DNA of 64,000 nt, taken from contig AP026126.1 in NCBI GenBank assembly GCA_030295235.1, forward strand, positions 558,001-622,000, written 5' to 3'. This stretch comes from Fistulifera solaris (taxonomy: Eukaryota). Made by a program: the position numbers and the translations under genes. The notes under the pieces were generated by a model. The model made no database searches. It saw only the letters and a program-made list of their open reading frames with translations, and was not told the DNA's origin. This document shows, in pieces, positions 54,715 through 64,000 of this stretch (positions are counted from its first letter, which is position 1; every line of letters begins with the position of its first letter).

Positions 54715-56362
54715 ATGAGTGACGACTGGGAACTAAAGATCTGCTGCATGGGCGCAGGATATGTGGGAGGACCGACGATGGCGGTAATTGCCAAACGATG
54801 CCCTAAGGTGCGTTGCGTTGTTGTTAAAACGTTTCTTTGTGTTCTCGATGAGGCTGTATCATGAATAAAGACAGACTTAATTGTCTCTGAGGCCTTACGG
54901 GTTGGGTGATTCTTATGTGTTTCATCATTTGTGCAGCCCGGAGATTTGCCGATGCATCGCACAACGTGCCTTCCCCTGCGTCAAACTCAGTCTTAGCTAC
55001 TTTTCCTAATTCCCTGCTCTACTTTAGATCCGTGTTTGCGTCGTGGACATCTCGCAAAAGCAAATCGATGCCTGGAAGACGGACGATCTTCCTATCTATG
55101 AACCAGGACTTCTAGAAGTCGTTCAGGAGTGTCGCGGTCGCAACCTTTTCTTCTCGACAGATATCGCTGCCGAAATTGAAGCTGCGGACATCATCTTTAT
55201 CTCGGTCAACACACCCACCAAGACACAAGGTATTGGTGCAGGCCGAGCCGCCAATATCAAGAACTGCGAGTTGTGTGCTCGTACGATCGCGGATGTTGCC
55301 ACTACCGGCAAGATTGTTGTCGAGAAGAGCACCGTGCCCGTGCGTACCGCCCAGGCCATTGCGCGGGTCCTCCAGTCCAACGAAAAGGGCCTCAAATTCC
55401 AGGTTCTCTCGAATCCGGAATTCTTGGCGGAAGGAACCGCCATTGCGGATTTGATGAAACCCGATCGCGTCTTGATTGGAGGACAGCAGAGCGAAGAAGG
55501 CTTGGCGGCGGCCGCCAAATTGGTATCGGTGTACGCACACTGGGTTCCCCGTGAACAGATCATTACCACGAATTTGTGGTCCTCCGAATTGAGTAAGTTG
55601 GTGGCAAATGCCTTTTTGGCACAGCGTGTGTCGTCGATCAACTCGATTTCGGCGCTTTGCGAGGCCACGGGTGCCGATGTCTTGGAGATTTCCCGAGCGG
55701 TCGGTATGGACGATCGCATCGGCAAGCGTTTCTTGCAGCCTTCCATTGGGTTCGGTGGTTCGTGTTTCCAAAAGGATATATTGAATCTCGTATACCTCTG
55801 TGAGACGTACGGTCTCAATGAGTGCGCAGCCTACTGGAACCAAGTCATCTTGATGAATGACTTTCAAAAGAAGCGATTCTCGGAAAAGATCGTGGCGAGC
55901 ATGTTCAACACGGTGACGGGCAAGAAGATTGCCATGTTGGGATACGCCTTCAAGAAGGACACGGGTGATGTTCGCGAGACTCCCTCTATGTTCGTCTTGC
56001 GTGACTTGGTGCACGAGCAGGCTCATGTTCATGTCTACGACCCGCAGGTGAAGCGCGAGGACATGTGGATCGAAATGGACTACACGTGCGGAATGAACAA
56101 GGATAATACTCCCCGACTTGAGGAGTCGGTCGTAACGGCCCCCGACGCCTACGCCGCTTGCGAAAAGGCTCACGCCCTTCTCATCCTGACGGAATGGGAT
56201 GAGTTCAAAACGTACGATTACAAGAAAATCTACGAATCCATGATGAAGCCTGCCTTTGTTTTTGACGGACGTAACTTGCTGGATCACGATGCCCTTCGCG
56301 CGATTGGTTTCGAAGTACATGCTCTCGGAAAGCCCGATCCGTTGAAATTCTCTGATCTTTAA
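54715..56362 (+). CDS. UGDH: UDP-glucose 6-dehydrogenase; intron 54808..55027
   Basis: [78 protein letters not shown]. Confidence 0.97.
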
Positions 56363-57614: not shown

Positions 57615-59738
57615 ATGAGAATACTTTTCTTTTATGTTTTTGCCGGGTCGACCATCGTAGTCTCCAGCTTGTCCCTTTTTCCGCGAATGTTCTGTCGAAT
57701 GAAAGGAGCAGCAACACTTCGGGAGCACTCTCAAGCATTATCTTTCGCTGATAAATCTTCCCTGATGATTTCTTCTTCTTTTGATGACAAAGATAACATG
57801 AATCTCACAAACTCGTCGATATCTGCATCCGAGTACATGGAAATGGCGGCCCGTTACAAGAAAAGAGCAAAGGAGATTATGGACGAGGCAATTGCACTAG
57901 AAGCACAACAACAAGCAAAAAAAGCAATAAAGATACAACAGCAAGATCAAGTGAATCAAGAAGCTATCCGACGTTTCTTTTCGTCGACCAAGAACGTTTC
58001 ATCACAAAGTGTGTCGGAGCTACTGGAAAAGGAGCGATGGACTGTTGATCAGCTTATTCCTATTGTACATACGCTCTATGAGCGAGAAAAATCCGCCATC
58101 GCTGCGAACAATACTGAGCAGCTGGAAGTGGCTAGATCTCTGTTACAAACAATTTTGGATGGCGCAGCTATCACGGACGGGAGAAAGGGACTCGAAAAGT
58201 TGAGCGATAAATCTTCACGATGGTCAGGGAAGGGTTTATCGACTCTCACAGCGCAGTTAAAAGAATGGCGTCGCAAAGACGAGGACAGTTTTCAACGTCG
58301 TTTAGCATCGGACCTATATGATGCGATCAAAAGCAATACCACCATTGAAAAGTACATCAAAAAGTCATTAGGTCTGGCTATTGAAAACGAAGAAGAAACG
58401 GATGTGAAACCGACGGCAGGCAACCAGACGTCAGTTACAGTCCTCCCTTACTGGATTCCTTTATCTCTCTTGCCGTACATTGTTGCGGCTAAGACCTTGT
58501 TGGACCGGAAGGACGTTGAGGATATAAAGGAGAAAGTACTATCGACAAGTCGCTTTTACTGCACGTCGTCAGAATCCGTCCCGGTAGCAGCTTTGTTTAG
58601 AGGAAATATTCGTTCGAAAGGGGCAGTTACAGAGAAGAATAACTCAGAACTGGTGGCAAACGTATTCGACGAAATCCAGCACCTAATGAGGGAAAAATCA
58701 ATTTCATCGCGAGTGCAGTTATTCGTGATGCCTGATCCTGAGTGGGCACCCGACAGAGATAAGCAAGAACCAAAACCGAAACCAGTGATCCTAGCGCTTC
58801 CACGAGCCGTTGTACCGGACGATACATTAGCTGGTCGATCCAAAATTCGAAAGTTGGTGCGAAACGTGGTGTCTTTCACGGCGTTTGCTAGCATATGCAA
58901 TTTTGCGCTCAGGTGCTACTCTTTGAACTGGAGCTTCTACTCATCCATTATCCAGGCGAACAACTTCGCTCATGCCTTGTCTTGCTGTCCCATTGTCGCT
59001 GGTATAATAGCGGTCCAAGCAGCACACGAAGTAGCTCATCTACTTGTTGCACGGAGAAACGGTATCCGAACTGGAAAGCCCGTACCGATTCCCTCTCCTT
59101 ATTTACATGCAGGGCTGTTTGGTTGCATAACCCCGCTACGGAGTTTTCCTCGAAACCGGTGCTCGCTCTTTGATTGGGCGCTGAGCGGACCACTGACGGG
59201 GATCATAGTATCCTTGGTTCTTATGATTTTTGGTTTGCACCACACAGTGAATGCTTCCCATACAGCTCTGTCACGTTTCCCAGTAATCTCTATCGCCGAA
59301 CTGAAATGCAGTTTTCTTGTTGGATCACTTACTTCGCTCATCGCCCCCAAGGTTATGATGCTACCGAATTCGCAACCGATCCCAATGCATCCACTATTCA
59401 TGGTCGGCTTTACAGGAATTCTGTCGTCTGCTCTGAACATGCTGCCGGTATTCCGCTTGGACGGAGGTAGGGCTTGTACGGCAGTATTGGGAACCCGTAC
59501 AAGTGCCCTGGCGTCGTCGTGGACTTTGTTGATGTTGCTTTCGGCAGCCATATCAGGAAGCAGTATTTTTGGCTATTGGGCAGCTATTATTATCTTTTTT
59601 CAACGGCGACAAGATATTCCCGTCCGAGACAGTGTCACCCAAGTCAACGATATGCGCGTGGCTGCATGGATCGCTTCTCTTGCGACCAGCCTTCTCGCTT
59701 TACTACCTTTTCCAGGGGGTCCATTTCCCTTGCTATGA
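57615..59738 (+). CDS. EGY-like site-2 protease (peptidase M50), probably plastid-targeted
   Basis: HEVAH (HExxH), ALSGPLTG, HPLFMVG, NMLPVFRLDGGR (NxxPxxxLDG), multiple TM segments and a signal-like N-terminus. Confidence 0.88.
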   Translation: MRILFFYVFAGSTIVVSSLSLFPRMFCRMKGAATLREHSQALSFADKSSLMISSSFDDKDNMNLTNSSISASEYMEMAARYKKRAKEIMDEAIALEAQQQAKKAIKIQQQDQVNQEAIRRFFSSTKNVSSQSVSELLEKERWTVDQLIPIVHTLYEREKSAIAANNTEQLEVARSLLQTILDGAAITDGRKGLEKLSDKSSRWSGKGLSTLTAQLKEWRRKDEDSFQRRLASDLYDAIKSNTTIEKYIKKSLGLAIENEEETDVKPTAGNQTSVTVLPYWIPLSLLPYIVAAKTLLDRKDVEDIKEKVLSTSRFYCTSSESVPVAALFRGNIRSKGAVTEKNNSELVANVFDEIQHLMREKSISSRVQLFVMPDPEWAPDRDKQEPKPKPVILALPRAVVPDDTLAGRSKIRKLVRNVVSFTAFASICNFALRCYSLNWSFYSSIIQANNFAHALSCCPIVAGIIAVQAAHEVAHLLVARRNGIRTGKPVPIPSPYLHAGLFGCITPLRSFPRNRCSLFDWALSGPLTGIIVSLVLMIFGLHHTVNASHTALSRFPVISIAELKCSFLVGSLTSLIAPKVMMLPNSQPIPMHPLFMVGFTGILSSALNMLPVFRLDGGRACTAVLGTRTSALASSWTLLMLLSAAISGSSIFGYWAAIIIFFQRRQDIPVRDSVTQVNDMRVAAWIASLATSLLALLPFPGGPFPLL

Positions 59739-59876
59739 ATCTTACCACCTACGTTCGGCGTAGAGACAAAGCTTTACAAAAGATATATAAAGTTATAGGA
59801 ATTGTAATTAGACATCTGAGCCCGTTATGCAAAAGTTCGTGTGATCAGCACTATTACGCTGGCTCGAAAAGGCTGC

Positions 59877-61249
59877 CTATTCTAGCATGGGTGCAGATTG
59901 CAATCGATCGCGGTGATAGCTAATATTGTGGCTACCACATTGAAAACTAGTCACAGCTGCCGGCTGATCAACCATTCCGTAGCTATTGAAAAGGCGCCTT
60001 GGGCTTCCATCACCAATCGGAGAAAGGATAAGGTCTTCACCGAAGGAGTCGGAGTTATCCTCCATGTTCCCTTGACGGTAGGACTTTTCAACATCCATAG
60101 CCATGTTTGTATCGGAGTTGCGGCGAACATGCATGATTCTCTGTTGACGATGTGGGGACGGAGATAGATCAAATCCATCAAAGAACATGTCTGGAGCTGA
60201 ATTGTTCATTTTCTGGAAGACCTCGGCTTGCTTGTCCGCCTCGTAGGACCATCCGCCCAAGTTAGGACAAGAATTGTTGAAGATCGCTGATGAAACAACT
60301 TGAGGAGGTCGCACATGCTGAGACTGTTGCTGTAGTTGTTGCCCGATGTGGTAGGGCAATTGCATCATCTGTGATGGTTGTGATCGCAACCCGTTCAATT
60401 CCACTACCGAACGTGCCGACTGATGACCGACAATGTCAATTGTTGCCTTGGGGCCGCCAAATCCTGCAGTGAGCTCTGCATCTAAAGCCCCAAGAAGCGA
60501 GTCCTGAAGTGGTTCATAATTTCGAGAATGCACCATGGATGGCTTCCCCATGTGAAGTACTGTAGGATCGAAGCTCAACGAACTGGAAGAACCTTGTAGA
60601 ACAGAGCTATGAGAACTGTGATTTAGAGAGCTTTGCGAGCTGTGATCCAGATAGCCGTGATCAAGATAGCCCTTTTCACCGTGTTCGGCTTGACGGCGCT
60701 TCTTTTTGGCTGTGTTACTAGACTTGTACTGGTCGTGAAGTGCATCTCGGAAAGCCTGCGAGGTCTTCTCACGGGCGAGGAAATCGCCAACCTCATACCA
60801 GCGACCGCTGGATGAGTCTCGTTTCACAAACCCTCCTTGAGGACTTCGCTGACGAACCTCACAAACGATATCCGAGAGTATATAGGATTTTTCTAGCTTA
60901 GCGGTTGCGTTTGAGTATTCCTCGAGACGGCTCTCAACCAACTTACGGAAACGTTCGTTTCCTACATGGTTAAATGCTTTACGGCCACCTGTGAAAAAGA
61001 CGGAAAGGTAAGTCACTGTGGAAATACAATTTTCAACAAGGGCAATCTTAACGTACGGCCGCCTGCGGGAAAGCGATCAAAGGTAAGGGAAGTTCAAAAC
61101 AAACAAAAAGGACACGAGTCATAAACAGCAACTAACTTACAAATAACATCCCATTCTCCCGGAATATAATGTCGTGGCAATGCCGTCATGTTCTGTCCGG
61201 CAACTCCCTGCACTTCGCTTTCACTTTCCGAATCATTTGAGTCGTTCAT
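59877..61249 (-). CDS. DUF6824-like domain protein; exons 61141..61249, 61057..61062 (micro-exon) and 59877..60988
   Basis: After splicing reads WDVICGRGRKAFNHVGNERFR...GGFVK...WYEVGDFLAREKTSQAFRD; low-complexity S/Q-rich C-terminus. Confidence 0.85.
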
Positions 61250-62119
61250 TGTAATTGATTGCGTATTGTTGTGACCTCGACAAAACGTTTACGTTGTTGC
61301 GTGTTCGTGATCCTGGACTAGCTGACGTTCCGTTTCGTGATTGTTTTTGAGCGTATTTATTTATCAATAATCGTTCCCAAAGCTCCTTGCTTTGATGATT
61401 CAGCTGAGTGGGTCTATTGAAACAACTATCCTATTGCAAGACGATAATGTAACATCATAATGGTGTGGCTTAACACCGCGATGAAGGCTATTCGTAATTA
61501 CAAGGTGGCCAAATTCAAGGGGCTAATTTACTCCATGTGCCCATGCGAATATCTCGACGTGGAAGTATAGATCTAAAATGTAAAGTCATCAGTCAGTCGT
61601 GCTGCTGAATGTCCTATAGTGAAACAGTGGCGCATGGGTAAATGACAGTCATTCTAGTCACGAAGTTAGTTTAGTGCCCATTTCATTTTTATGTTGTAGA
61701 CATGCGACATTAAGCATTGAGACATTGAGAAACGAGGAAAAATCATGAAGAATGCAGTCTTATGAGATTGGGCCAACGTTTTTTAGCGTTTCAATATGTA
61801 TATTATCATATTATTGTTCCATAAATATGGTTTTTGATAATTTACAAGCAGACTGTTCTTATTTTTATTAGTTATTATACATATTTTTCGAAAAACGAAC
61901 AAATCTCGTTAAGCTTGCGTCGCGCTGAGACAGAAGGCTGACAAAAAGCGATTTACAATTGGTTCATTCCTTTCTGCAAAAATGAAGGTCAATTGCAAAC
62001 ACTCCACGATAGTTTCGAGAAAAGTGGATGATGATTCTTTAACAACAATCTGCCCTACACCTCGCATCGTTTGTTCCAAGGACCGTGGCTTTTGATGCAA
62101 GGGCCGACCTTTTCGAAAC

Positions 62120-62132
62120 AGAGAGAGAGAGG

Positions 62133-62169
<37 letters not shown>
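62120..62169. repeat. (GA)n microsatellite, slightly interrupted
   Basis: About 50 nt of AG repeats between the two DUF6824-like genes. Confidence 0.95.
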
Positions 62170-62171
<2 letters not shown>

Positions 62172-62269
62172 GCCACAAAATGGACATATGCCAAGAACGA
62201 AGCATGCTATGGTGCGTCAAACTTCCGTGCAGACAAACGATTCTCGCTTTACTTTCTATAATAAAAGTA

Positions 62270-63595
62270 CTATGATGAACTTTGTTTGCCACCTCCGAGT
62301 GGCACGGGCTCGTAAGGATCGTCGGAAAGTTTGTATTCAGTGAGTTTGTCCAGGCACTGAAGAAGCTCCTGATCGTCAGGGGACGTCTTTTTCAATTTGC
62401 GAGAACTTACTCGCTTGATGAGCTGGCTTGCTACTTCTGATGGTTGAGCATTCAGCAAAGCCGTCCCTGAGTTTACCTGTGGTGGCTGACTGCCAAACTC
62501 GGGTTCGAATTCCAATGCAAAAGCTTGATTTAATTGCTGCTGACCAGGATGTCGCTCAAGAGGAGCCTGATTCAAAGTCGAATTTCGAATCACTCGGAGT
62601 TGCATGTCATACTGCGTCGGAGCCCCAAAGATGTTTTGGTTAGCTTCCGGATTGTAATTGAAATGCATATTTGGAAGAGAGTGATGCATTTGATCGCGAA
62701 AAGGTGTCGTTGATGCGTTCATATCGTAGCGCATATCAGGAAGGGAGTTGAAATTCGACGAGCTGTCACCTTCAAACATTAGCTGGAATGGACGTTGGTT
62801 ACCCACAAAAGAAGAGGCGTCAGCTAAAAGTTGGTCAGAAACACTGAAGCTTCGGTTGCCAAAAGCATTCAATGTGTGTAATTCAGCAGGTGAAGGACCC
62901 AAAGGCGGTAATGCGGAGTTCGAATGAAAGCTTCCGGGAACAGTGAATGCTGGTGTTATGCTTGAATTCGACTGATTCGTCAACTGCAGTGATCGTGGAA
63001 AGGGAAGCAAACTCTGTTGTGAATCCATTGCATAGTTCTGCGAGAAAATTCCCGTGGAGAGCTCTATTCGTGGACGCCTGTCGTTTTCAGAAAAAGCGTA
63101 CATCATTTGGGATCTGTCGGAGAATTTCATTACTTCTTTTCTGCGTTTTTTCTTGGAAACATTACTCGATTTATATCTCTCATGTAGCGCATCACGAAAC
63201 GCTTGCGATGTCTTTTCTCTCGCTAAAAAGTCGCCTACTTCGTACCATCTTCCAGAATCATCTTGCTTCACAAAGCCTCCACCGGGGCTTGCGCGGCGTA
63301 CGTCGGCAACAACTCGATTAAGAACGGCGGACTTGTCGAGCTTAGTCTTGGCCCTCGAATATTCGTCGAGGACCTTTTCAACCCTGGTTTTAAATAGCTC
63401 ATTCCCTGCATGACTGTAACATTTCTTGCCCCGACCACAAACAACATCTTGAATGCTTGGTTGAAATTCCTCCGCTAGAAAGTTCAAAGTTGATCCTGAT
63501 CGCTGTTTCATTGATACGAGAGAGTTCCGGCTTTGCCCATCGTGACTTCCTGCCTCACTCGCAACTGACGAATCTCCTGGCTCCGATCGCTGCAT
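62270..63595 (-). CDS. DUF6824-like domain protein, intronless tandem paralog
   Basis: DVVCGRGKKCYSHAGNELFK...GGGFVKQ..GRWYEVGDFLAREKTSQAFRDALH. The domain core is nearly identical to the neighbouring gene. Confidence 0.88.
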   Translation of the reverse strand: MQRSEPGDSSVASEAGSHDGQSRNSLVSMKQRSGSTLNFLAEEFQPSIQDVVCGRGKKCYSHAGNELFKTRVEKVLDEYSRAKTKLDKSAVLNRVVADVRRASPGGGFVKQDDSGRWYEVGDFLAREKTSQAFRDALHERYKSSNVSKKKRRKEVMKFSDRSQMMYAFSENDRRPRIELSTGIFSQNYAMDSQQSLLPFPRSLQLTNQSNSSITPAFTVPGSFHSNSALPPLGPSPAELHTLNAFGNRSFSVSDQLLADASSFVGNQRPFQLMFEGDSSSNFNSLPDMRYDMNASTTPFRDQMHHSLPNMHFNYNPEANQNIFGAPTQYDMQLRVIRNSTLNQAPLERHPGQQQLNQAFALEFEPEFGSQPPQVNSGTALLNAQPSEVASQLIKRVSSRKLKKTSPDDQELLQCLDKLTEYKLSDDPYEPVPLGGGKQSSS

Positions 63596-64000
63596 GTTTT
63601 CAAAACTATTTGTGGGTGTTTGGTATGAAATTATTATTTGTGAGATTACTTGTTGGTAAGTTAATGAATTGATGTGTGATGAGAGAAATATCAGTGCGAA
63701 GATGTAATCGAATGCAGTTTGTCGTTCACCACAAGGCGTCCGCCACCTTTTTCTAGAGTTTCTGAAAGTCGGCTGTCGGGTCCCAAATTTACTGGGATAG
63801 GCAGTCCCGGTCCCATCCCAGTAAGTACAGTCTATAACTTTCTCTTACGACTTTCCCAATAATTTCTGGCCTAAATCTGTGAATGACGACGGTACGGAGT
63901 ATCGAATCAACATAGAGAAAAATAACCAGTCAACCGTCGGTACTCGACTAGATCAAGGGGCATATGTATAGGTTGCCTTACGCCTCCCTACTTTTTTGGG

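Follow-up and report, generated by a model that had tools for sequence, protein, structure and literature searches.

A probable 6-nt micro-exon in a DUF6824 gene of the diatom Fistulifera solaris, missed by the deposited gene model

Background

Plants and animals are known to have micro-exons of only a few bases, and it is well documented there that these are conserved and misannotated, as excerpts of PMC8831610 and PMC8378409 relate. In land plants, ultra-short coding micro-exons (<=15 nt) are described as pervasively misannotated (Yu et al. 2022, PMC8831610, in excerpt). The animal micro-exons, neuronal or dependent on PRP-40/PRPF40A, appear in the excerpted text of PMC8378409 as cassette exons under regulation, with dedicated regulators and in many cases with long introns on both sides. 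A constitutive exon of 1 nt is reported for Arabidopsis, and the same paper gives 6 nt as the previous minimum for such an exon (PMC4674806, in excerpt). Our literature search found no paper on diatom micro-exons and none on DUF6824, and for the intron lengths of F. solaris it returned only papers on organelles or on unrelated subjects.

How does the present locus compare with these systems? The window, by which we mean the whole stretch of 64,000 nt analysed, holds a three-exon DUF6824 gene of Fistulifera solaris, or of an organism with identical sequence, in which the hexamer GCGGCC is very probably a real, included exon. Like the land-plant micro-exons in the excerpt of PMC8831610, it is internal, coding and only a few bases long, forms part of a conserved domain motif between canonical introns, is mis-modelled in the reference annotation with a wrong protein as the outcome, and is conserved across related genomes; unlike them, it belongs to a diatom (a stramenopile) and to a lineage-restricted domain of unknown function, and its introns are very short (78 and 68 nt). 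It shares with the animal micro-exons of PMC8378409, as excerpted, that it is too small for exon definition and would be recognised via its flanking introns, but it bears no sign of regulation and these introns are short enough for default intron definition. As with the 1-nt Arabidopsis exon, its size is far below the usual limit and its use is probably constitutive, although 6 nt is no record beside that exon (PMC4674806, in excerpt). Within the family, putative 18-nt exons of metagenome DUF6824 loci resemble it in lying in the same N-terminal motif region, as a tiny exon between two GT-AG introns; they are read from DNA alone and differ in that their introns stand after GRGKK and between the G and the N of HxGN. 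The finding is an annotation correction and not a new kind of biology.

Results and discussion

Structure of the gene

The gene lies at 61249..59877 on the minus strand and has three exons, all coordinates having been confirmed from the sequence and by a script check. Its features are as follows.

61250..61450, minus strand: 5' untranslated leader, at least this long (record 13 of run X2, a contig, covers 61450..61140 unbroken)
61141..61249, minus strand: exon 1, coding part, 109 nt (sequence and script)
61140..61063, minus strand: intron 1, 78 nt, phase 1, GTAAGT...CCGCAG (sequence and script; absent in the X2 contig)
61062..61057, minus strand: proposed micro-exon GCGGCC, 6 nt (sequence and script; letters present within the joint of the X2 contig)
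61056..60989, minus strand: intron 2, 68 nt, phase 1, GTACGT...TCACAG (sequence and script; absent in the X2 contig)
59877..60988, minus strand: exon 3, remainder of the DUF6824 domain with a long tail of low complexity (Pfam PF20710 match)

Exon 1 starts with the ATG at 61249, carries 36 codons and the first base (T) of a Cys codon, and ends at 61141 with ...GATGTTATTT; exon 3 begins at 60988 with GTGGCCGTAAA and closes with the stop codon at 59879..59877. Because exon 1 has 109 nt, both introns are in phase 1. Each is GT-AG with a strong, consensus-like donor, a pyrimidine tract and CAG, i.e. a canonical spliceosomal intron stands on either side of the hexamer, and a branch-point-like CTTAC lies about 21 nt (intron 1) and about 20 nt (intron 2) upstream of the acceptor. 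The hexamer contributes the GC of Cys, the GGC of Gly and the C of an Arg codon CGT, the spliced letters being T-GC GGC C-GT. At 6 nt, this internal coding exon falls within the size class of micro-exons in the sense of PMC8831610 (<=15 nt). By script, its inclusion gives an open frame of 408 aa with ...DVICGRGRK..., while skipping gives 406 aa with ...DVICGRK..., the frame being intact and the Cys codon still formed; retention of intron 1 or of intron 2 leads to an early stop in the frame of exon 1.

An initial annotation of this DNA, made from the letters, had placed a 6-nt micro-exon GCGGCC at 61057..61062 and had it complete the CGRG motif, and every coordinate was reproduced by script. 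It was also right that both flanking introns have canonical ends (GT-AG), but its remark that their length is typical of the window is weaker, the other homology-supported intron checked being 220 nt long. That intron belongs to the following gene.

54716-56362, plus strand: UDP-glucose 6-dehydrogenase-like (UGDH) gene, ATG at 54716, first coding exon split from the main ORF by an intron

The putative name of this gene is taken from its GAGYVGG N-terminus. Because its GT-AG intron (54808..55027) has 220 nt, not all introns of the window are of about 70 nt.

The domain and the tandem paralogue

Exon 3 alone matches PF20710 with 80.1 bits (curated gathering cut-off 27), covering profile positions 7-84 only. 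A second DUF6824 gene adjoins upstream, and the window has no further DUF6824 ORF.

62270..63595, minus strand: tandem paralogue, 441 aa, no intron at the motif, DVVCGRGKK (ORF; PF20710 87.7 bits, positions 1-84)

This paralogue is 91% identical to P0118, and its motif agrees with the initial annotation, which had read DVVCGRGKK in an intronless neighbour. Its domain (63161-63493, minus strand) was modelled by AlphaFold with a pLDDT of 90.6, and the model consists of a short strand, the GRG turn, helices and a small hairpin, with GRG between strand 17-19 and helix 23-26. Foldseek with the modelled domain against the PDB gave no match at E <= 0.001. In a wide fold comparison by VIA the best Z was 5.7, for a GT-1 DNA-binding domain, with homeodomains at about 4, all below the noise level that the tool states; with matches at that level, no fold or function is claimed for DUF6824. 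In both paralogues the domain is followed by a basic KKKRR stretch, and the DNA between them has a long (CT)n/(GA)n microsatellite at 62112-62180, a repeat that was passed over in the comparison with contigs, which seem to be cut there.

Comparison with homologues

Which of the two proteins does the family possess? A search with the exon 3 protein gave 234 matches at E <= 1e-5 among 1,766 candidates, and the counts given here refer to the 120 matches listed. All eleven full-length orthologues (P0002-P0012, 42-89% identity) read CGRGRK, in the form ...D[VID]ICGRGRK..., and the ...VAGQNMTALP... stretch of exon 1 is common to the orthologues P0002-P0005. The spacing pattern D-x3-G-[RKS]-x7-x-G-N fits 108 of the 120 listed homologues. 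The other 12 comprise four with the same spacing and variant residues, and eight that are cut or read through at the N-terminus. The spacing obtained by inclusion is therefore found in 112/112 listed homologues with an intact domain start, and that obtained by skipping in none. With the hexamer included, Cys-Gly-Arg is complete and the invariant distance of the family from GRG to HxGN is restored. With a family HMM built from 97 non-orthologue domains (P0013 onward; direct orthologues were left out), the inclusion protein scores 186.6 bits against 173.9 bits for the skipping protein, which shows a two-column gap at the G after GR. By all three measures inclusion restores the conserved protein.

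Every one of the 61 sequences aligned has the R and the G of GRG. The initial annotation had called this motif the most conserved one of the domain; that it is conserved stands, but the superlative goes too far, as 16 further positions are likewise invariant.

Is the hexamer then always included, or is it an alternative cassette exon, with CGRGRK and CGRK both made in meaningful amounts, as a frame-neutral switch that loses the invariant Gly and the next residue? A length of 6 nt would suit such a switch, since skipping preserves both the frame and the Cys codon. The start of exon 3 also repeats AG-GYGGCC-GT, so that look-alike acceptors could compete, and both skipping of micro-exons and detention of the introns beside them occur in plants according to the excerpt of PMC8831610. 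We nevertheless regard the cassette exon as improbable: the shorter spacing is missing from every listed homologue with an intact start, the two residues R and G never vary in the alignment and are placed by the model in a tight turn between strand and helix, and the sole joint reported, that of the X2 contig below, carries the hexamer. Judging from the model, a deletion of two residues in the GRG turn would probably damage the fold, and the comparison within the family suggests that the shorter product would be defective. A frame-neutral switch had been offered as a possibility by the initial annotation, and no support for it emerged. It is similarly doubtful that the cell chooses between two look-alike acceptors, each with a similar branch point and pyrimidine tract before it, that regulated skipping deletes Gly-Arg from the GRG turn and that the N-terminal motif is a micro-exon hot spot. 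If this were true, regulated skipping would yield an inactive or altered DUF6824 protein with the frame unchanged, and annotations would systematically miss the many micro-exons in this diatom family's N-terminal motif (6 nt in the present gene, 18 nt in two other lineages). Constitutive inclusion is the probable use of the micro-exon, because the two residues that it supplies are invariant.

A joined contig from a second gene copy

Four coded runs of one study were compared with positions 59500..64000; their type was guessed as "RNA?", and none is recorded as RNA. Record 13 of run X2, a contig of 335 letters at depth 31.8, covers 61450..61140, continues with GGCCG and resumes at 60988. Note that the aligner placed the C of the hexamer at 61140, and this C together with GGCCG makes up the plus-strand form of the hexamer in the contig. 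Exon 1 hence runs into the micro-exon and on into 19 bases of exon 3, neither intron being left, in one contig from one of four runs of guessed type and from a variant copy. The exon 1-hexamer-exon 3 junction that the initial annotation had proposed to look for is present in this one contig, from a variant copy in a run of guessed type; together with the inclusion spacing in every homologue with an intact N-terminus, it bears out the proposal that the micro-exon is real. A skipping joint (61141 to 60988) is not among the joints listed for the four runs, whose contigs drop rare variants. Protein searches with exon 1 gave no transcript-derived ORF of either isoform: the one near its length found only P0134, a genomic read-through, and the longer one found nothing.

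Against the window, exon 1 of the contig shows five differences, all of them synonymous, and contigs of run X1 carry 14 variants in exon 3, 13 of them synonymous. Taken together 18 of 19 variants are synonymous, and the exception, Q157H, is the residue of the related copies P0001 and P0124. Because its five exon-1 differences are all synonymous, the joined X2 contig comes from a second working copy of the gene and not from the window's own allele. F. solaris has been characterised as an allopolyploid whose genes occur in homoeologous pairs (PMC5935921, in excerpt), and the natural reading of the source is the partner (homoeologous) copy. The pattern of variants fits two expressed partner copies under purifying selection.

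With a run type that is a guess and a contig that departs from the window at five places, one might also think of DNA from an intronless (retroposed) copy elsewhere, rather than RNA of this locus or its partner. Such a source is very hard to credit. Synonymous differences, five of five, are what a working partner copy in an allopolyploid would lead one to expect (PMC5935921, in excerpt), and the related genomic read-through copies all contain both introns. What is more, a retroposed copy would itself record an mRNA spliced with the hexamer.

As to coverage of the region, runs X2-X4 have zero cover over the intergenic stretch 61463..62368, and X1 covers all bins.

The deposited gene model

The database match P0121 is GAX09936.1, "hypothetical protein FisN_11Lu091 [Fistulifera solaris]", of 399 aa. 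It was rebuilt exactly by script, 399/399 residues, from positions 61154..61141 and 61062..59877 of the window, and its start is as follows.

61152..61154, minus strand: out-of-frame ATG, start of GAX09936.1 (exact rebuild)

The model removes intron 1 correctly, reads the hexamer and intron 2 as coding and begins with MGCYL...; neither the motif nor the 36 conserved residues of the N-terminus are in it. Its PF20710 score is 81.9 bits, where two orthologues reach 96.7 and 94.8 bits (positions 1-84). GAX09936.1 misses the micro-exon, as the initial annotation had foreseen for gene predictors, and the deposited model is wrong. The present structure corrects it, replacing a protein with a false start and an intron translated as protein by one with the true N-terminus and the invariant GRG turn.

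Could the deposited model be right after all, with intron 2 coding from the ATG at 61154, or could the hexamer lie within a single 152-nt intron? The deposition of a model that reads through intron 2 speaks for such a reading, as does intron 2 being open in the frame of exon 3, in the window and in three relatives. Against it, both introns are removed and the six letters kept in the X2 contig, GAX09936.1 drops the N-terminal stretch that orthologues share with exon 1, and its PF20710 score is some 13-15 bits below theirs. The related genomic copies also bear on this question. The cluster of the best match includes ORFs from related genomic contigs in which the introns are read as coding; note that these relatives (P0001/P0123, P0124 and P0134) are known here as translated ORFs and not as DNA. 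Their intron-2 "residues" diverge with indels, while exon 3 is free of gaps and 95.9% (354/369) and 97.0% (358/369) identical. That the hexamer is no exon is accordingly a reading to which we give hardly any credence.

In the frame of exon 3, the window reads ...RRRPYVK..., P0124 reads ...HRRPYVK... and P0001/P0123 read ...RRWPYVK.... All three genomic versions retain the acceptor AG, the hexamer and the donor GTACGT, and the change from R to W in P0001/P0123 implies GCGGCC to GTGGCC, that is TGC to TGT and Cys to Cys in the true frame. In P0134, which lies on the same contig as P0123, 34 of the 36 residues of exon 1 are identical, followed by read-through of the donor and then by divergence; the GTAAG donor of exon 1 is kept. 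A metagenome scan gave no genomic DNA of a close orthologue, the best match being 47% identical over the full length.

Chance occurrence of the hexamer

Might such a hexamer stand between two splice sites by chance? The required pattern consists of AG, a hexamer GYGGNC, which completes Cys-Gly-Arg in the right phase, and GT, and both strands of the 64-kb window were covered. It occurs twice against 0.61 expected, and at least two occurrences were seen in 11 of 100 shuffles. Both lie inside the DUF6824 gene, one being the micro-exon and the other the first six bases of exon 3, and the two matches reflect a coding repeat of Gly-Arg-Gly-Arg. By our own arithmetic a random 152-nt gap would hold such a hexamer in less than 1 in 1,000 cases (about 7 in 10,000), and the match is beyond chance.

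The unit AG-GYGGCC-GT stands at 60981-60990 and 61055-61064 (minus strand), the sole two copies in the window, each downstream of an alike CTTACCTTT...CAG acceptor region. When the last part of intron 1 with the hexamer is aligned to the last part of intron 2 with the beginning of exon 3, the score is 27, against 14.65 +/- 2.28 in shuffles, of which 0 of 500 reach that score. The introns by themselves align with a score of 18 against 14.3 +/- 2.5, a value reached in 53 of 500 shuffles. Because the introns alone score so near the shuffles, the alignment was rejected as evidence for an origin of the hexamer by tandem duplication, the signal being the coding GR-GR repeat plus generic acceptor features. 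The two copies of the unit may go back to duplication or to convergence.

Splicing of the micro-exon

How would so small an exon be spliced? By analogy with other organisms, the two short introns, of 78 and 68 nt, would each be recognised as a unit by intron definition and removed singly, one after the other. Sequential removal is suggested because the factors that bind donor and acceptor hardly fit together on six bases. Intron definition, steric limits and sequential removal are argued for animal micro-exons in the excerpt of PMC8378409 and for plant micro-exons in that of PMC8831610. The joining of T-GC GGC C-GT would then complete the Cys-Gly-Arg codons and bring back the spacing from GRG to HxGN. 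The 78- and 68-nt introns offer a compact natural case for the splicing of an exon too small for both splice-site complexes. The blind spot for micro-exons known from plant annotations is found in a diatom too, and comparative or functional work on the large diatom DUF6824 family would inherit truncated domains wherever micro-exons are missed.

Introns around the motif in other family members

The metagenome scan yielded 47 DUF6824 loci. The motif is uninterrupted in 27 of the 47, some of which may be transcript assemblies. In others, introns or putative tiny exons lie at the start of the domain.

L024:2856-2873 (also L026, L028, L029): 18-nt putative micro-exon, introns of 197 and 126 nt (DNA only)
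L043:2850-2867 (also L044, L045, L046): 18-nt putative micro-exon, introns of 243 and 132 nt (DNA only)
L033:1194-1288 (also L034): phase-2 intron splitting the motif's Cys codon, one base off intron 1 of the window
L039:394-731: intron in a Val codon, two codons upstream of the Cys codon

The putative 18-nt exons, found in eight loci of two sequence groups, encode the residues just after GRGKK and are flanked by canonical GT-AG introns. With them included, the family HMM gives 178.8 instead of 151.2 bits and 115.8 instead of 88.6 bits, about 27 bits more in each case. The positions of introns around the motif appear to vary among family members. As predicted from these loci, the start of the domain is often split by introns, and tiny exons there would not be unique to the F. 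solaris gene. The N-terminus of P0072, a protein from the search with exon 3, resembles an intron read-through that ends right before GNERF, at the position of the second intron of the L024 group, and suggests that this intron is shared more widely.
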